The notes under the pieces were generated by a model that saw only the letters and a program-made list of their open reading frames with translations, made no database searches and was not told the DNA's origin. The translations under genes and the position numbers were made by a program. Positions 1-56,425 of a DNA stretch of 64,000 nucleotides are shown here, in pieces; positions within the stretch are counted from its first letter, which is position 1; each line of letters opens with the position of its first letter. Location of the stretch: contig CM000435.1 in the NCBI GenBank assembly GCA_000165345.1, forward strand, positions 1,056,001-1,120,000. Direction: 5' to 3'.

Positions 1-1
1 G

Positions 2-148
2 ACAAATCCAGAAATCCTAAACAGAGAGGCCAAAAGAAAGCTCGAGTATATTTATGACAAGCTTAATAATATTAAGGAAACTAATACTAGTAGCAATGCT
101 TATAGTGCTGTTAAAGTCGGTATGGGATTTGGACAGTTTGGATATTGA
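2..148 (+). CDS. 3'-terminal fragment of an upstream gene (partial CDS, stop TGA at 146-148); product unknown
   Basis: Open frame runs from the window edge (…TNPEILNREAKRKLEYIYDKLNNIKETNTSSNAYSAVKVGMGFGQFGY*). It is too short to be in the ORF track and I recognise no family. Confidence 0.3.
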   Translation, partial: TNPEILNREAKRKLEYIYDKLNNIKETNTSSNAYSAVKVGMGFGQFGY

Positions 149-341
149 AATTCCCAAATTTAATTAACTAAAAAGTTTTCTCATTTCAAAGCCTAACCAA
201 TTGGCTAAGACTACAGAGCTATTAATTACTTTTCCCTTCTTTTTCTCTTTTCATCCTCTTTTATTCTATTGAATTCTTTATCTTTTCTCTCATATTACTA
301 AAATCAACTGTTTGGATGAATACAGTGCATACATCTCTTCA

Positions 342-740
342 TCACGCTTTGACCTCTGAGGAAGACGAGGATGCTGAAGCAGACGAAGAAATACCCATGT
401 TTGATTCTTTATTAAGATTCTCAATTAAAGTTTTAAGTTCCTCCTCTATCGATTCATATTGCTTCTCTAGCTCGGAAATTGCTGAGTCCAAGGCAGCCTT
501 TTCCTTTTCCAGTGCAGGCTTTACTGTTTTCACAGTCCTTTCCACCATAACTCCGCCAATTACTCTAAAACATCTCCTTTCTGGGTCAACCTTCTCAAAA
601 GCATTAAGTACAAGACCATGTTCTTTACTATCTTGAGATAATTCTGAAATCTTACTGCTCAAAACCTTTAGCTTTCTATCTAACTGTGAGATCTTCTCTC
701 TAGAAGCTCTTTCTTTGTCTATAGGAAAAGAAGAATTCAT
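342..740 (-). CDS. PFDN2: Prefoldin beta-type subunit (prefoldin subunit 2-like), 132 aa
   Basis: ATG start checked (cat at 738-740). Coiled-coil flanks surround the central motif RCFRVIGGVMVERTVKTVKPAL, which is typical of prefoldin subunit 2 (GIM4). Confidence 0.65.
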   Translation of the reverse strand: MNSSFPIDKERASREKISQLDRKLKVLSSKISELSQDSKEHGLVLNAFEKVDPERRCFRVIGGVMVERTVKTVKPALEKEKAALDSAISELEKQYESIEEELKTLIENLNKESNMGISSSASASSSSSEVKA

Positions 741-1055
741 TTTAATTAAATTTGAGATATACCAATTTCATGTCTATACAGACACTTCCTCCTAGAAACT
801 CACCTGTAGACATTTTGCTTATTTTACCCGAATTACCGAAAGAAGGAACTTCTAGTTGTATTTCTTTTTTTTCTTGCACCGTTTTTTTCCCTCAAAATTC
901 GGTACCTCTAAATTAATTTTAATATAAATTCACATGGGGACCTTATTAATGGAAAATGCCAAGTTTCCCGCCAAATCATAATTTATGCAATTAAATAAAT
1001 GTCAGAAAGAGAATAAATAGATTTGGCAAAGGAAAAAAAGAATTTGATTGAAAGA

Positions 1056-1961
1056 ATGAAGTACCTTCCAATGGTCAGTTCTTCACTTAATTCTACTTCC
1101 TATAACAGATTTTTATCAAAATTTGGAAGTAAGCAGAGACCAGTATCTAGTAAGAATAGGATATTATTAACGGGAGTGTACACATCAAGGAATCCAACGA
1201 AGCCACCAGGATATGAAAATGAGGACTCTTGTTGCGTAGGAACAAGTTATATTTGTGTTGCGGATGGAGTTGGTGGTTGGATTTCACAGGGAGTTAGTTC
1301 AGCTATGTATAGTAGACAGCTTGTAAATTACATAGAAACATGTATTAATGATTACTCAAGGGAACAGAAATGCGAGTTGGACAAAGATAAGTTCATTGAA
1401 ATGGTGAATAAGTGTTATGAAAATATGAAATCTTCCAAAATTATTGGTAGTTCTACGCTCTGTTTAGCTTATTTGGATAATAATAACAAACTTCATGTAT
1501 TTAATTTAGGGGATTCAAAGTGCGTAATATATAGAAAGGAAGAAAAAGAAGTCATTTTTGAGTCAGAGATTCAGCAACACAACTTTAACACTCCTTTTCA
1601 ACTAGGAACTGGGAGTATTGATACTCCTTATAATGCAGATTATATGATGTTAGAAGGTATCAAATCTGGAGATGCGATTATTGTAGCAACTGATGGACTA
1701 TGGGATAATATTTCAATGGATAAAGTTATTCGAATAGTCGATAATAATTTGTTGTATGAACCACAGAAAATTGCAGAAAAGCTTGGGAGGGAGGCTTTAC
1801 AGCTATCTTTGAACTCGGAGCATATTTCTCCATACTCGATGAGTTTAAATAACTATTTAAGCCAGAAATTGCAGTCGAATATTCAATCAAATGGTACTTT
1901 TGGTTTTGTATCTGGAGGAAAGCCTGATGATATCACTGTATCGATAGGGGTAGTCCAATAG
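1056..1961 (+). CDS. PP2C-family protein phosphatase, PPTC7/SpoIIE-like (301 aa)
   Basis: The ORF-track start at 1023 is TTG; the first ATG is at 1056 (MKYLPMVSS…). PP2C metal-binding motifs are present: ICVADGVGGW, IIVATDGLWDN and GGKPDDITVSIGVV. Confidence 0.75.
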   Translation: MKYLPMVSSSLNSTSYNRFLSKFGSKQRPVSSKNRILLTGVYTSRNPTKPPGYENEDSCCVGTSYICVADGVGGWISQGVSSAMYSRQLVNYIETCINDYSREQKCELDKDKFIEMVNKCYENMKSSKIIGSSTLCLAYLDNNNKLHVFNLGDSKCVIYRKEEKEVIFESEIQQHNFNTPFQLGTGSIDTPYNADYMMLEGIKSGDAIIVATDGLWDNISMDKVIRIVDNNLLYEPQKIAEKLGREALQLSLNSEHISPYSMSLNNYLSQKLQSNIQSNGTFGFVSGGKPDDITVSIGVVQ

Positions 1962-1987
1962 TTTGCCAGAAGTATGTCTTTAATCTT

Positions 1988-2473
1988 CTAAGGTCTAGAT
2001 TCTTGTTTATTCATCGTAACCTTAATTGAAATTCCACTCACATTTCTTGTGCTTTTCGAAGATTCCCATTCTCTTTCTTCATTAATATGTACATCAGTTA
2101 CTTTGATAGTATTTGTAGTCACTTCAATCTTGATTTTATCTCCTAAATTTGACTTCAAGTCCTGAACAAGCCAAATTGCTGTCATTATACAGGCTCCCAT
2201 TCCATGTATTACTACAAATTGTTCATTTTTTCCTGACTTAAAAAGCTTTTTATTCCGTCTACATCCAAGCCTTTCTTCGTAAATAGAATTATGAGCCTCT
2301 GAAACTGTGAGAAGATTCATTGCTCTTCTAAAGTATACTATTAATGGTCTCTTTCTTGTTACATAGATATCATTTTCCTTAATTTCCTTTGGTATCACTG
2401 CCTTCTTAACCATTCGAGTCTTTTTTTCTTCTTTACCTACTTCATCAGGTACTTTCATCAACACATCATTCAT
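1988..2473 (-). CDS. POP7: RNase P/MRP protein subunit POP7/Rpp20 (Alba-like fold), 161 aa
   Basis: The blocks NDIYVTRKRPLIVYFRRAMNLL and QFVVIHGMGACIMTAIWLVQDL match those of human POP7 from memory (NDIYVNMKTDFKAQLARCQKLL and EIYIHGLGLAINRAINIALQLQ), as does the C-terminal SGISIKV. Confidence 0.6.
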   Translation of the reverse strand: MNDVLMKVPDEVGKEEKKTRMVKKAVIPKEIKENDIYVTRKRPLIVYFRRAMNLLTVSEAHNSIYEERLGCRRNKKLFKSGKNEQFVVIHGMGACIMTAIWLVQDLKSNLGDKIKIEVTTNTIKVTDVHINEEREWESSKSTRNVSGISIKVTMNKQESRP

Positions 2474-20261: not shown

Positions 20262-21481
20262 ATGGTAAGTTAGGAGTATTTTTAAGCAAGACGAGGAAGT
20301 TTCTAACTGGAGCTTGTTAATTCTTTAGGCACGTGGTCCAAAGAAGCATTTAAAGCGTGTGGCAGCTCCATCCAACTGGATGTTGGACAAATTGACAGGT
20401 GTATATGCACCTCGTCCATCAAGTGGTCCACATAAACTAAGAGAATGTATTCCATTAGCAATTTTACTCCGTAACAGATTAAAGTTTGCTTTAACATATA
20501 CTGAAGCAAAGTATATTGTAATGCAACGTCTTATCAAGGTTGATGGTAAGGTCAGAACTGATATCTGCTTCCCATTAGGTTTGATGGATGTTGTAAGCAT
20601 TGACCGTGTTGGAAAGAATATACGTATAATGTATGATACAAAGGGTAGATTCGTACCAGTCCAAATTGATTCTAAGGAGGCAGGATTCAAGCTATGCAAA
20701 GTAACTAAGGTTGCTCTTGGAGCAAAGGGTATTCCAACTGCCACAACAAATGACGCCCGTACTTTGAGATACATCCACCCAGATGTCAAGGCAAATGATA
20801 CTGTTAAAGTTGACTTGGCCACAGGAAAGGTAAGTTGATTTAGAAAAAATTGGTTCAAATAAGGCAATGAAAGGGGTGAGACGAGGATATTTTTGGTAAT
20901 TTTTATTATATAGTCGATTTGACGTGTTGGCTTTTCGGTGATGAACAACGACTTAAATGGGAATCTCTCTTACAAACAAATAATATGGTGAGATATGGTC
21001 TCGACTTTCTGTCATGATTGTCCTGATGTTCTGCTTAAAACACGTCATTTTTGTACTTTTAGAGTTAACAAAGATTCCAATATACCCTCATATATGATTA
21101 TTGCATATTTTATAGAAAGATTTGGTATTCTTATTTCTGATTTGCCTTGAAACCAAATATACTTTACTGAACAATATTTAATTTCCCCCTTTAATATAGG
21201 TAATTGACTTTGTCAAATGTGAAGTTGGTAACATGTGTATGGTCACTGGTGGTAGATCCCAAGGCCGTGTTGGTACCATTACTCACTTTGAGAGAAAGAT
21301 GGGTGCTCAGTGCATCGTCACTATTCGTGACCAAAAAGGTGCTACCTTTGCAACTTTAATGAAGAATATCTTCGTTATTGGAGAGGAGGGCAAACCCTTG
21401 GTCACTCTTCCAAAGGATAAAGGTATTAGATTATCAAATGTGGAGGACAGAAACTTAAGAATGAAGAAGCACAGGAACTAA
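20262..21481 (+). CDS. RPS4: 40S ribosomal protein S4 (three exons: 20262..20264, 20329..20829, 21200..21481), 261 aa
   Basis: Exon 1 is the ATG alone, followed by GTAAGT. Exon 2 starts [43 protein letters not shown] and ends …VDLATGK|GTAAGT. Exon 3 begins [25 protein letters not shown] after the acceptor ATATAG. This is the canonical eS4 sequence. Confidence 0.9.
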
Positions 21482-25633: not shown

Positions 25634-26041
25634 TATTAAATTATTGCATTTCTGCACACGACTCCTCCTCTAACATGATTTCGCCTCTTGGCGCCTAAAT
25701 GCTGGACATGCCGCTCACAGGTACCGAATCTAAAAATACGTTTGGGGGCCCCCAAAGCTGGTGTAGGAGAAAAATATCAAAAATTAATTAAATATCAAAA
25801 ATTACAAAGGAGACAAAAATATAAGATATTATTCAGGAAAAATTTCTTCAGGATTAGATTTATTAAGGTTTTATTTTCCTTTATTGATACTATTATGATT
25901 ACGGCTATTCCTTTAAATCTATCTACGTTCTCAGCAGATTCGACTATTCATCTTTAATACTTACCACGATTTCTCCTTTTTTTCCCATATTCCAGCTTCT
26001 TCCTCTTCTTAGTTTTCACCCAGCTCAATCTTTTTAACTGA

Positions 26042-27847
26042 TTATATTATGCATACTAGATTTCTAGGATTGGTCTCCCAACTTAAAATTGCCATAGTAA
26101 CGGAGGTAAAGGAGATTACGCTACCAATAAAAACCATAAATCCAATAAAGAGTTGTCCGGCTTTTGAAATTCTCTCCCTATTAAGACTGAAATAGAATAA
26201 AGGTGGATAAACAAATGCTAAAGGAACACATAATAGTCCTCCAGTAATTGTTACAAAGCTTCCTAACTCATCTTCAAAGTTATAGGCTAAAATCCCACAT
26301 AATAAAACCAGAGAATAAGAAATTAAAGCCCTCAGAGCTGAGTGGTGGAACTTTGATCTGGAATCTATGAGTCTGTCTTGGCTCAAGTCAACGATCTGGG
26401 CCCCATCGTCTTCTATTTCCTCTAGCCTTTCCAAGCTTTCCTTCTTTACTATTCTTGGAATACTTTTATTACTCTTATCACCGCCAATACCGCTACAAAT
26501 ATCAGTCTCCAAATTCTCAATAACTGCTCCTTTCTCTGATTTATTCTCTTTATTAGCCTTCATATTTTCCAATTTCAAACTGGAAGTTGAATTCTCCACA
26601 GGAGAGTAAACCACTTTGTTCCCAATGGAGGAATCCCAGCTTTCAGATATTGACGCAAGCTGAATAATCTTTGAAGTAGAAAACAGATTGTTCTGGAATG
26701 ATGATATATTCTCTGAATTCTTCAAAGAGGAGGAAGAAAAATTCAGCTGAGAAGCCCTTAAAATATTTGTACTCGTAGGATTTATCCGGATATTCTTTTT
26801 TGAAAGCTCACTTTCATGCTGGTCATCTGTGATCATGAAAAGTTCTTTCTTAATCTCTTTTCCGGTTACTTTCTCTTTATCAACTTTTGAAACAGGATTT
26901 GTCTCAATCTTCTCCAGATTCTCCATACTCTTTCTTCCTATAAAGGGAAGTTTTATCTGAAATATATATTTTTCTATAATCCCCATAGATGGGAAAAGCT
27001 GTAATGGGACGGAAAACATTATTGCAGATGAGTATATTATTAGAGAAATTATTTTGGCTTTTGGATTCAATATATTCTCAGTTACTGGAGAGGTAGTATC
27101 ATCACCAAATGAATAGTAAACAAAGCTTGCAAAGAAGTTTGAGATTACCCCAATCAATATCATTGTAAAGGTTAATATTGCTGGAAAAGCTTGGAGTAAA
27201 TACTCCGGAGTTGAATTCCTTATTGGAAGTATCAACGCTATTCCTTCATAATTAAATGCACTTGTTCCAAGTACTAACCCTGCTCCATATATGCTACCAA
27301 GCCTTGAAATTTCTGGTCTACCAATCGGATATCTTTCCAGATTTTGATAACCATAATAGATTATTACTCCAAGTACTGAGAACACTGAAATATTTGCTAA
27401 TACACTGAGAAATCCCAGATTTTCAATATCTCTCAAAAAGATAAAGGGTAAGTAAATTACCATCTGGAAACAAATCAGCTTAAGTATTGGAATTTCTAAC
27501 TGGCAACTTGAAATGGAATATATTATTTCTTGAATATTATGAGATACAAAAATCATATAAACTGTAGAAAAGCCTAGCTGAGAAAAGAATATTGAAGTAT
27601 CAACCAAAATTAATCCAGATCTTCCCCAAACTCTCTCTGCTAACTCTCCTAAGGTTTCTTTGCCTTGACAACACTTAACCAAAAATCTGATTGAAATGAT
27701 AGCCAAGAAACAAACCAAAGTTGATAATATATTTCCACTAATAATACCTGAAACTCTAAACGTTCCTGGCAAAAAGATAATCCCAGTCCCAATAAAAGAC
27801 TTGATCAGTGTGACCATTATCCTCAAGCACGGCCTCACTCTTTTCAT
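26042..27847 (-). CDS. Amino-acid transporter of the Aa_trans (SLC32/36/38-like) family with a large hydrophilic insert, about 600 aa
   Basis: The ORF-track start at 27871 is TTG; the first ATG is at 27847. Signature LIKSFIGTGIIFLPGTF, about 11 TM helices, and a 190-aa soluble loop. Confidence 0.7.
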   Translation of the reverse strand: MKRVRPCLRIMVTLIKSFIGTGIIFLPGTFRVSGIISGNILSTLVCFLAIISIRFLVKCCQGKETLGELAERVWGRSGLILVDTSIFFSQLGFSTVYMIFVSHNIQEIIYSISSCQLEIPILKLICFQMVIYLPFIFLRDIENLGFLSVLANISVFSVLGVIIYYGYQNLERYPIGRPEISRLGSIYGAGLVLGTSAFNYEGIALILPIRNSTPEYLLQAFPAILTFTMILIGVISNFFASFVYYSFGDDTTSPVTENILNPKAKIISLIIYSSAIMFSVPLQLFPSMGIIEKYIFQIKLPFIGRKSMENLEKIETNPVSKVDKEKVTGKEIKKELFMITDDQHESELSKKNIRINPTSTNILRASQLNFSSSSLKNSENISSFQNNLFSTSKIIQLASISESWDSSIGNKVVYSPVENSTSSLKLENMKANKENKSEKGAVIENLETDICSGIGGDKSNKSIPRIVKKESLERLEEIEDDGAQIVDLSQDRLIDSRSKFHHSALRALISYSLVLLCGILAYNFEDELGSFVTITGGLLCVPLAFVYPPLFYFSLNRERISKAGQLFIGFMVFIGSVISFTSVTMAILSWETNPRNLVCII

Positions 27848-52657: not shown

Positions 52658-54833
52658 TTAAATGGAGGAAATGCTTAAGTTAACGTTTTTTTTGTGATTT
52701 AAATCTTGATTGACAGGCATACAGCTAATTCTGTATTTGGTTGCATACTTCCACTCAAGGATTGCATGCAAAATATAAATAGTTGAAATAATATATAATC
52801 CGATTTCGAACGAACCAAAGAAATTGGTTGTTATGTGAAGAATCAAAGAGATAAAAGCTATAATAAGACCATCAACAATGGTAACAATAATTCCAGAAAA
52901 TGCAGATAATTTTCCTAATAAAGGATATTAGAAATGTTTTCAAAAGTATGATTTTGAGATAATTAATTAAACCTACCTTGTTTCTTCTCATCATCCATAT
53001 GTAGTTGATATATAACACTCAACCCAATCTTCGGAACCGAATAACAACCAAAGAAAATGGCTGAAAAGGCAAATATTGCACAAAGACCTGCAATAAAAAT
53101 GGTTAACATATTTCTCAAAGTATTAGGATGCGCGCCTTTATTTTTGGCATTGCATGCATTTATGTGGATAACTTACATGTAATCTGCATGAAAAAAAATT
53201 GAGAATAAAATTTCATAATGGAGATAGATACTGGGAGAATGATGACTGATAGATCTGCAATTGAAATTTGAAGGAATAGTCGGTTAAGGGTATTTTCATT
53301 GAGGAACTGAAAAATGAATTTGGAATAGGAGATATCAGTGGATGAAGGTGTAGATTCTGAAGAAATTGTATGATTTTCTGTGGAGAAGTTGCACTCAAAG
53401 TCTTTATTTGCATTGACTTCAAATTCTTTGTTTTGAATATATTCTTTTTGATACTTCCATGTAACAATTAAGCTTGATAGTTTTCCAAATCCTAGGGTAA
53501 TTGCTACTAGAAGTAGAGATAGAGGTGCCCAATAGCTTTTAGGGTTTTGTTTTTCGAAAGAAAACTTTTCTAACAATTCTTTTGAGGTATGGATGATTGT
53601 TAGAGGGATAATTATTGAAATCATGACATCTTCAAATGCTGTTTCAAAAGCCAAACAGAATATCCGATTTCTAATATTGATATCTTGGCAAACAAATACA
53701 AAACCTTCTGAGAAGTTAGAGATTTTGTTCTGGATTTCTTTGATAGTGGATCTGGGAACAAGGCTTGCAGCGTTTTCTTCTAATTCAAAAACTTTTTGAG
53801 CTCTCTCTTGATTAATATTTAGATAGTATTCGCCAGAATCTTCGTTTGTGGTTAATCTAGACTCTTTGCTTACTGGGATTCCAAATTTATAATATATAAT
53901 TGATATGGTTGAAAGAGTTTGAAAAATTGAAATTATCATAAGAGCTGGAATCTCAATACCAGAATTACCAAGATCAAAACTAATGTATTTATTCAATTCC
54001 ATATCTGAAAATTCTACATTTGTTACTTTCATTAAATTATACCAAAATACTAAACATAGTATTGAAAAAGCCAGAATAGGATTCAGTAATACAAATGAAA
54101 CATCAAAGATTGTCAAGTGAGTGTATACCGCTTGAGATTTTTGAGTTGCTGTGATTTCTATATCATATTGATTGGAAAGATAATTCAGACCTCCACAATC
54201 CAAATCAACAACGTTTAATAATGAAATAAGTACACCATCTAAAGCTATTAGTATATAGAATTGGGTATTACCAATAATTTCGTATATTGATTCATGCCCA
54301 TAATATCTTCCAACAACATAAACAAAAGGAAGATAAGAACTCCACATAAATGATCGTAGCATTGTTACATAAACAAGGATAGTTCTCATTGAGAACTTCT
54401 CAGAAATCACTCTTGATACTGGCGACATTATTACGAGCATCAAATTAAAAACCAGTCTAGCATTTCCAGCTGCTAACTCTGACTCCATAATAAATGTGAT
54501 TACTGTTCCAAAAAAACCCCACCAAATTGCTGCTGATATTACACTAATTAGTTGTCCATAGACAAACGATCTATAAATTTGGTCTCCATTTCTTTCTCCT
54601 GAAAAACTACTTGAAAACCAAGAAAGTGTGCTATAAAATAAATAATATATCCATCTCTTTAATATTATGAGTTTCTCTCTGACTATTACCATGAAAGTCG
54701 GTATCCTTCTTTCTTCTAAATTTAATTCTGGTGGAATTATTCGAATTGTAGGTATCTGAAGGTATCCTTGACTCAGACGAGGAAACTCATCTCTATTGCT
54801 GTTTTCATATTCTAGTCTATAACTTTCTCCCAT
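52658..54833 (-). CDS. Polytopic (about 12 TM) membrane protein, possibly an MFS-type transporter. Proposed three-exon model: 53177..54833, 52977..53087 and 52658..52914, about 674 aa
   Basis: ORF 53160..54833 ends 13 nt after an in-frame T|GTAAGT donor. The acceptor TTTTATTGCAG| at 53088 continues in frame (C LCAIFAFSAIFFGCYSVPK…KKQ), and a second intron (donor CAAG|GTAGGT, acceptor TTTATTAG|) joins to GKLSAFSGIIVTIVDGLIIAF…SISSI*. The added exons supply three more hydrophobic helices, giving a 6+6 arrangement. Alternative: 52658..53109 is a separate 127-aa membrane-protein gene starting ATG 53107-53109. Confidence 0.45.
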
Positions 54834-55458
54834 GTAAATACTTTAAATGGCAATTTTTATTCACTTTTATTTGCCTTAGGAGACATTTAAGAAGAAGAAA
54901 TTAACTAATTTCTTCATTATTAACTTTTCTTATCTTTGAAAATGTTATATATTTCTTTTTTTACTCAGTCCCCCCCACATCACTACCTTTTTTTTAATTC
55001 TATATTAATATTTCATAAATGGTCAAAACATAAAAATTTCTATTGAAATATCAAAAGATTATAAACTTGTCATTGAAAATCAAAAATGAGTAAAGGACCC
55101 TATAGAGTTTAATTTTTATAGCTTTATTATTAGAATCGTATTTTACTATTAATTTTAATCACCCCTTGAGTAAATAAAATTTATTAACTGCATGCAATTA
55201 GACTGTATTATTATGTGAAACAAAATACAAATTTTTCAACAAGACAAAATAATTCATCGATTATTTAATTCTTTTAAACTTTATATTTTGTTAAAAATAT
55301 CAAGAAAAATGTCAATTCTGACCGAGTTTTCTTCCAGAATTTAACAATGATATATTATTGAATTGGGTTTTGGCGGGAAGCCAAATTAATTTAATAAAGT
55401 AAATAAATACTGGTATCAATTACATTATGATGTGTGTAAAATAAAATTCACAAGGAAA

Positions 55459-56425
55459 ATGTATGGAAGCATCGGAATATCAATATTTCTATTTTTGTTT
55501 GCGCTCAGATTTTATTTTTGGGTTAGAGGAAGATTTTCTTTTAATGTTGGGAGCAATGAAAAGCTAGAAAGAAAATCGAATTGTGGCGAGAAAGTTAAGA
55601 TATTAGTAGTTTTGGGTTCAGGAGGTCATACAGCAGAACTATTAATGTTATTAAAGGATATGGATTTGAGAAATAAAGTTTCCTTAAGCTGCGTAGTAGC
55701 AAACACTGATAAGTTTAGTTTGGAGAAGGCAATAAATGAATTTTCTGAGAATTTGAAGGTGGACAAAGACAATGTAAGGAACTATGTGGAGTTTTACAGC
55801 ATAAAAAGAAGTAGAGAAGTTGGACAGAGCTATTTTTCATCAGTATTCACGACATTGGCATCTTTTATGGATTCAATGAGGATATTATTTCAAGATAAGT
55901 ATGATTTAATAATGGTAAATGGCCCTGGTACATGCATTCCTATATGCTTTGGGTCTTTGATATTGGAGGTAAGTAATTCTATTAAGAGGGGTTAGATGCA
56001 TGTAAATAGGTAGAAAGTGTACACATTTGAATTAATTACTTTGAAATTACATTAAACAATTTCCCCTCGACCAAAATTATTAAATATATTAAACATATTT
56101 TGAATACTTTTATTATCCCTTTAAAATTATAGTTTCTACTTATAAAAAGCTCAAAGATTGTATTTATTGAAAGCTTTTGCCGTACAAAGACTCTCTCGTT
56201 AACGGGTAAACTATTATTGCCATTTGTAGACAAGTAAGTTAAAAAATGATGATTAAAAAGTTTGAAATTAAAGTTAATTTGACTAATTTATGAATGAAAT
56301 TATTTTCCACTTTATTTAAATTATAAAAATACTAAAAAAAAATTTTTTTTTCAAGGTTTATTGTTTTATGGCCATATTTAGCTGATAAATACCCTAAGTG
56401 CGAATATTTGGGTGTATTATTTTAA
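55459..56425 (+). CDS. ALG14: UDP-GlcNAc transferase subunit ALG14 (three exons: 55459..55968, 56133..56233, 56356..56425), 226 aa
   Basis: The ORF-track start at 55432 is GTG; the first ATG is at 55459. N-terminal TM anchor. ALG14 motifs ILVVLGSGGHTAELLML and NGPGTCIPICFGSLILE. GTAAGT donor, then exon 2 FLLIKSSKIVFIESFCRTKTLSLTGKLLLPFVD, a split Lys codon, then exon 3 FIVLWPYLADKYPKCEYLGVLF*. Confidence 0.75.

Follow-up and report, generated by a model that had tools for sequence, protein, structure and literature searches.

The 64,000-nucleotide (nt) stretch of Cryptosporidium parvum DNA analysed here (the window, with a G+C content of 31.8%) contains an open reading frame (ORF) at 54833..53160 that encodes a membrane protein of 557 amino acids, ending ...FMQITCKLST. 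Coordinates are positions in the window, and the gene is read on the minus strand. In all likelihood this ORF is the first part of one three-exon gene at 54833..52658, from which two introns are spliced to give a 674-amino-acid membrane protein with twelve helices in the 6+6 arrangement of a major facilitator superfamily (MFS) fold. Removal of both introns leaves a coding sequence of 2025 nt that reads through 674 codons in a single frame, with zero internal stops. The parts of the gene are given below, with the transmembrane helices numbered TM1 to TM12.

53177..54833, minus strand: exon 1, coding from the ATG at 54833; 1657 nt; residues 1-552 and the first base of codon 553
53088..53176, minus strand: intron 1; 89 nt, phase 1, GTAAGT...TTTATTGCAG
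52977..53087, minus strand: exon 2; 111 nt; residues 553-589 and part of codon 590; TM10 and F565...P571-K572-I573-G574
52915..52976, minus strand: intron 2; 62 nt, phase 1, GTAGGT...CCTTTATTAG
52658..52914, minus strand: coding part of exon 3; 257 nt including the stop TAA at 52660..52658; residues 590-674

The exons follow the helices of an AlphaFold model described below. Exon 1 encodes the N-terminal tail, TM1 to TM6, the central loop and TM7 to TM9; exon 2 coincides almost exactly with TM10; and exon 3 covers the last two helices, TM11 and TM12, and a short C-terminal tail. Exon 3 also holds the nearly invariant residues T601 and D604, and it enters an ORF at 52658..52846 whose listed start is a TTG.

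Splice signals and conservation of the tail

The first intron base is 53176, in the donor ACA T/GTAAGT (the slash marks the exon boundary), which splits codon 553 after its first base. A false in-frame stop, TAA at 53162..53160, is separated from this boundary by 14 intronic nt; a preliminary description of the locus, made from the letters of the DNA, had found the donor and put the distance at 13 nt. The acceptor TTTTATTGCAG, with its tract TTTTTATTGCAG (pyrimidines at 8 of the 10 preceding positions), ends at 53088. The frame resumes as T+GT (Cys553) and continues for 111 nt to a second donor, CAAG/GTAGGT, starting at 52976. The second acceptor, TTTATTAG, ends at 52915, and the frame resumes as G+GA (Gly590) and stays open to the TAA at 52660..52658. 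The preliminary description had proposed both the 89-nt intron, with a pyrimidine-rich acceptor resuming the same frame, and the 62-nt intron (GTAGGT…TTATTAG) leading into the TTG-initiated ORF; both hold, and all of its intron coordinates are correct when read on the minus strand. The false stop and an ATG specific to C. parvum (53109..53107) both lie inside intron 1.

Both introns have a GT donor and an AG acceptor in consensus context. The hexamer GTA[AG]GT occurs in the window at a frequency of 0.34 per kilobase per strand. In a crude scan of the window, a donor-like hexamer near the stop together with a frame-extending GT..AG intron was found for 3 of 33 ORFs of at least 150 amino acids; besides the present gene, one of these is a genuine intron-containing gene for ribosomal protein S4e and one is probably due to chance. 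The splice motif pattern by itself is suggestive, exceeds chance only moderately and is not conclusive, and the comparative data therefore carry the case for splicing. Lengths of 89 and 62 nt are typical for C. parvum, for which a mean intron length of 84-99 nt has been published (Table 1, PMC4637869). Reannotation aided by RNA sequencing (RNA-seq) and cDNA in the same work raised the proportion of intron-containing genes from 4.3% to 10.8%.

The syntenic locus, consisting of Alg14, the present gene and a RING/SIS3_N gene, was compared in nine species: C. parvum, C. muris, C. ubiquitum, C. bovis, chipmunk genotype I, C. canis, C. felis, C. andersoni and C. hominis. The exon 2 and exon 3 peptides were located by tblastn downstream of the first ORF in all of them (E values of 1e-14 to 1e-53 for exon 3), in a frame relative to exon 1 that varies by species. 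An exhaustive search of GT..AG pairs in C. parvum, scored solely on open frame and similarity, returned exactly the two introns of the preliminary description. For the nine-species calls a donor-consensus filter was added to this search. With it, intron 1 is in phase 1 in every species, with a length of 78-104 nt; intron 2 is also in phase 1 in every species, is 49-79 nt long and keeps its GT-AG signals; and exon 2 has a length of exactly 111 nt throughout, with both introns at the same positions. The preliminary description had named an alignment to orthologues as a check, and exons 2 and 3 and both introns are kept in nine of nine species, the predicted proteins continuing past …FMQITCKLST. 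The intron lengths fall in every class modulo three, so reading through them cannot preserve the protein, and splicing alone can.

Donors returned for C. muris and C. andersoni by the unfiltered search lay 13-18 nt away, at the weak sites GTCTTA and GTAAAG, and were rejected. The GTAAGC and GTAAGT donors adopted in these two species yield the 111-nt exon 2 and match the first annotated junction of C. muris.

The pattern of substitution separates exons from introns. Against chipmunk genotype I and C. ubiquitum, the nearest relatives that are informative, exons 2 and 3 show 82-87% identity with 0-2 gap columns, whereas the introns show 67-75% identity with 8-13 gap columns. Intron 2 alone is 67% identical to these relatives with 8-11 gap columns, and the identity of intron 1 falls below that of its flanking exons, with indels present. 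Differences from C. ubiquitum at first, second and third codon positions number 3, 3 and 14 in exon 2 and 9, 4 and 17 in exon 3, a bias to third positions that is characteristic of coding sequence.

The tail is also conserved far outside the genus. Word-indexed homology searches gave matches in Cryptosporidium only, whether the query was one sequence or a profile, and an exhaustive HMMER search was needed to go beyond the genus. Its profile, built from ten Cryptosporidium sequences, spanned 560 positions and was in essence confined to exon 1, the tail being absent from most public models. Searched against 1.84 billion representative sequences, it found 149 relatives, 33 of them with E < 1e-30. 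Those that can be named (E values of 1e-59 to 1e-41) are Toxoplasma gondii TGME49_310210, proteins from Hammondia, Cyclospora and Eimeria stiedai, Chromera velia Cvel_28955, and transcript-derived ORFs from the gregarine Lankesteria, from Colponema vietnamica and from the transcriptome shotgun assembly record GHVT01. More than 50 distant homologues have a C-terminus to which residues 541-674 of the C. parvum protein align in a single collinear block that spans the two splice junctions. Across an alignment of 37 sequences, F565 and K572 never vary and P571, G574, T601 and D604 are nearly invariant; all six lie in exons 2 and 3. The tail is therefore an integral part of the protein family.

Predicted fold of the spliced protein

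AlphaFold run on a shallow alignment of ten sequences gave a predicted local distance difference test (pLDDT) score of 40, and that model was set aside for the fold search. With the 37-sequence alignment the pLDDT rose to 74, with a predicted template modelling score (pTM) of 0.75, and the model has twelve long helices in two sets of six. Those of the N-terminal half are predicted at residues 82-116, 121-146, 149-177, 182-208, 229-271 and 294-318, and those of the C-terminal half, after the loop, at 385-423, 432-478, 513-542, 547-582, 586-622 and 625-649. The helices of exons 2 and 3 are modelled with pLDDT values of about 86-96, and the exon 2 region with about 89-95. The preliminary description had expected three added hydrophobic helices to give a 6+6 MFS-like protein of roughly twelve helices, and the predicted structure agrees with it.

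The model superposes over its full length on solved MFS transporters. These include human SPNS2 (8qv5), E. coli MdfA (4zp0), NupG/YegT and FLVCR1/2, with sequence identities to the C. parvum protein of 8-12%. Unlike them, the C. parvum protein has a long central loop, a long loop between TM8 and TM9 and two family-specific motifs, DxDCGG and PKIG.

Several traces of MFS ancestry were looked for in the sequences. Canonical motif A reads G-x3-[DE]-[RK]-x-G-x-[RK]-[RK], and the consensus of the family at residues 141-151, in the turn between TM2 and TM3, is G-x-x-x-E-R-x-S-x-R-[RK]. In the family alignment of 37 sequences the acidic position is E in 29, and the basic positions are R or K in 26 and 33. 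The best match to MFS_1 (PF07690), in one distant relative (P0046), is in register over TM1-TM3 and scores 23.2 bits against a cut-off of 33.4 bits; there is also one LacY_symp match among the relatives, at E 0.012. No repeat linking the N-terminal half to the C-terminal half was detected by sequence (hhalign probability 0.6%, E 0.097). Since sequence comparison often misses this repeat even in genuine MFS families, the result is weak evidence either way. Marginal matches to SecY and others among PDB sequences were judged compositional and rejected.

The C. parvum protein is thus predicted to have an MFS fold, and its formal membership of an MFS sequence family is putative. In the mechanism that we propose, the spliceosome would cut both short introns (89 and 62 nt; GT-AG, phase 1) out of the pre-mRNA, and the resulting mRNA would encode the 674-amino-acid polytopic membrane protein. 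Helices from exons 1, 2 and 3 would then assemble into a complete 6+6 fold. The protein most likely works like other MFS members, which would make it an alternating-access secondary transporter.

One apicomplexan group invites comparison. The ApiAT/NPT proteins are likewise apicomplexan transporters of MFS type that generic domain models capture poorly. The single ApiAT of C. parvum is cgd2_1310, on a different chromosome from the present gene (supplement of PMC6386423), and TGME49_310210 is absent from the supplementary lists of that paper. For these two reasons we rejected an ApiAT identity for the gene.

Competing gene models

The three-exon model is already known. An exact-sequence look-up found the 674-amino-acid product, without a single difference, in GenBank as QOY40818.1 and WRK33675.1 (locus tags CPATCC_0010820 and cpbgf_7004920); the model became public with the C. 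parvum IOWA-ATCC and BGF annotations. Gene and exon structure in these records match those given here, and the product is named 'Uncharacterized protein', with neither a fold nor a family assigned. The orthologue models of C. ubiquitum and chipmunk genotype I are also exactly 674 amino acids long, with 100% query coverage in the word-indexed search. The CPATCC tags belong to the IOWA-ATCC (CpIA) reannotation, whose authors state that 100% of its introns have RNA-seq support.

Other public models stop short of the full tail. If only intron 1 were removed, translation would end inside intron 2 (...KKQGRFN) and give a protein of 593 amino acids. This model stands in GenBank as CUV07481.1, WKS79185.1, KAL5367813.1 and KAL3127290.1; an exact look-up matched the C. 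parvum product to WKS79185.1, with analogous C. hominis models. It is annotated in C. hominis UdeA01, in Cryptosporidium sp. 43IA8 and in some C. parvum and C. hominis deposits, and one of the records comes from the reannotation aided by RNA-seq and cDNA (PMC4637869). We consider it very unlikely to be the correct structure. The GT-AG signals, position and phase of intron 2 are conserved in all nine species at lengths of 49-79 nt, and the exon 3 protein is conserved throughout the genus (E down to 1e-53) and in distant homologues, in which T601 and D604 are nearly invariant. Exon 3 evolves with the third-position bias of coding sequence, and a 593-residue product would have ten helices and an incomplete MFS fold.

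Slightly less probable again is a locus with no splicing of the first ORF. Here a nine-helix protein of 557 amino acids would end at the TAA at 53160, and a separate gene for a three-helix protein of 129 amino acids, itself requiring removal of intron 2, would start at the ATG at 53109. The 557-residue ORF is the original 2004 annotation of C. parvum Iowa II (XP_628636.1/EAK90455.1, by exact look-up), and C. parvum does have an in-frame ATG 50 nt past the stop. The preliminary description had raised this alternative with the right start and a length of 127 amino acids, two too few. In C. hominis, C. ubiquitum, C. canis, C. felis, C. bovis, C. muris and C. andersoni, however, there is no in-frame ATG between the preceding stop and exon 2, and the ATGs found in chipmunk genotype I belong solely to a read-through ORF that continues from exon 1. 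A stand-alone gene is not credible because its start is not conserved and because conserved splice signals directly abut it. From one species to another, exon 2 changes frame with respect to exon 1 in exactly the way expected of spliced introns that differ in length, and distant homologues, including the transcript-derived ones, carry the region of exons 2 and 3 in one polypeptide. The nine-helix product would also lack three helices of the C-terminal bundle that the structural model packs at high confidence.

The weakest alternative, which we regard as scarcely credible, keeps both introns and moves the first acceptor to an AG 41 nt past the donor, an option that preserves the long frame in the scan (89 - 41 = 48, a multiple of 3) and adds 16 residues (AHPNTLRNMLTIFIAG-like) before exon 2; only 3 of 10 positions before this AG are pyrimidines (8 of 10 before the acceptor of the 89-nt intron), the added residues lack conservation, exon 2 measures exactly 111 nt in nine species, and the public 674-residue models use the 89-nt intron.

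Some points weigh against the three-exon, MFS-fold interpretation. Public annotation is divided: the C. parvum Iowa II model has 557 amino acids, the C. tyzzeri model 556, and the models of C. hominis UdeA01 and others, from which only intron 1 is removed, 593. Isoforms that retain an intron may exist. The RNA-seq support cited above is a general statement on the CpIA annotation, not on this locus, and the gene is probably cgd7_4920, an identity taken from the cpbgf locus tag alone. As to the fold, its assignment rests on a predicted, not a solved, structure. Pfam gave nothing above threshold for the spliced protein, the small alternative ORF, the 10 Cryptosporidium orthologues or the 37 diverse homologues, and profile searches of PDB sequences gave no notable match. 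Motif A of the C. parvum protein itself, R-V-I-S-E-K-F-S-M-R-T, is degenerate; it keeps E145, K146 and R150 and has lost both glycines.

Many public models of this gene, in C. parvum and in other species, look wrong at their 3′ ends, where they read into intron 1 or 2 or stop early. Among them are those of C. parvum Iowa II, C. tyzzeri, C. hominis UdeA01, C. muris, C. andersoni, C. bovis, C. xiaoi, C. ryanae, C. canis and C. felis. The C. muris model (638 amino acids) ends ...DKAGKCKV, and the models of C. bovis, C. xiaoi and C. ryanae end within intron 1. In C. canis the model has 479 amino acids and a frame-shifted tail, and the C. felis model, of 451 amino acids, starts at an internal Met.

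Neighbouring genes, family and significance

Other genes in the window show splice features of their own. The gene for ribosomal protein S4e (20262..21481, plus strand) has a first exon of one codon, the ATG at 20262..20264, followed by a 64-nt intron at 20265..20328 (GTAAGT...TTCTTTAG) and a second exon at 20329..20829, ending ...VDLATGK. A strong donor, GTAAGT, stands at 20830, and a KOW-like C-terminal part is found in the ORF at 21233..21481. The arrangement points to another intron, of roughly 350-400 nt, which would be long by Cryptosporidium standards. At 26042..27847 on the minus strand lies an ORF for a polytopic membrane protein of 601 amino acids that, judged by sequence only, resembles amino-acid transporters. 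A donor-like GTATGC lies 12 nt upstream of its stop, with a possible intron of 127 nt (26056..25930) that is probably a chance match; its acceptor, GCTGAG, has no pyrimidine tract, and the 40 residues that it would add look non-coding.

The Alg14 ORF (55432..55995, plus strand), listed with a GTG start, adjoins the three-exon gene. The C. hominis Alg14 model takes 966 nt for 226 amino acids, so the window probably also holds an upstream exon or at least one intron of the C. parvum neighbour. Annotations of C. ubiquitum (locus positions 9..2374) and C. felis (1..2108) merge Alg14 with an aldehyde dehydrogenase into one product carrying PF08660 and PF00171, of 603 amino acids in the former and of 725 amino acids, running off the locus, in the latter. 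This merger is likely an annotation fusion, the two being separate genes in other species.

TGME49_310210 and the other named relatives have the same twelve-helix layout as the C. parvum protein and share with it D199, D212 and G215 (in the loop V-V-D-x-D-C-G-G-L), K451, P534, F565 and P-K572-I-G. They differ from it in loop lengths, with 20-27% identity, and are annotated throughout as hypothetical or transmembrane proteins. In the family alignment, the loop that follows TM4 holds the strongly conserved motif V-V-D-[IL]-D-C-G-G-L (residues 208-216), in which D212 and G215 never vary; the likewise conserved motif F...P-K-I-G-F (residues 565-575) follows TM10, and its F565 and K572 are invariant. 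The two motifs occupy pseudo-symmetric cytoplasmic positions in the two halves of the protein and have no obvious counterpart among canonical MFS signatures.

Literature searches for cgd7_4920, TGME49_310210 and TGGT1_310210 returned nothing relevant (one match to '310210' was a grant number), no experimental data on either gene and, in the library searched, no paper mentioning the TGME49_310210 relatives. We rate it an even call that these proteins constitute an unnamed family of MFS-fold transporters, restricted to alveolates (Colponema, chromerids, gregarines, coccidia, Cryptosporidium and many environmental sequences), with neither a Pfam model nor a literature.

The gene structure itself is of little import, as the correct three-exon model is already public. 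It does illustrate that a real splice structure can be recovered from raw sequence, as the preliminary description did. The derived intron coordinates would correct the public models that appear truncated or wrongly ended at the 3′ end. An 'uncharacterized' protein can now be described as a putative transporter with a predicted MFS fold and a place in a conserved alveolate family, which is relevant to inventories of the small transporter repertoire of Cryptosporidium. If the existence of such a family is borne out, the fact that a genome as reduced as that of Cryptosporidium has kept a member would suggest that the transport function is important and possibly druggable.
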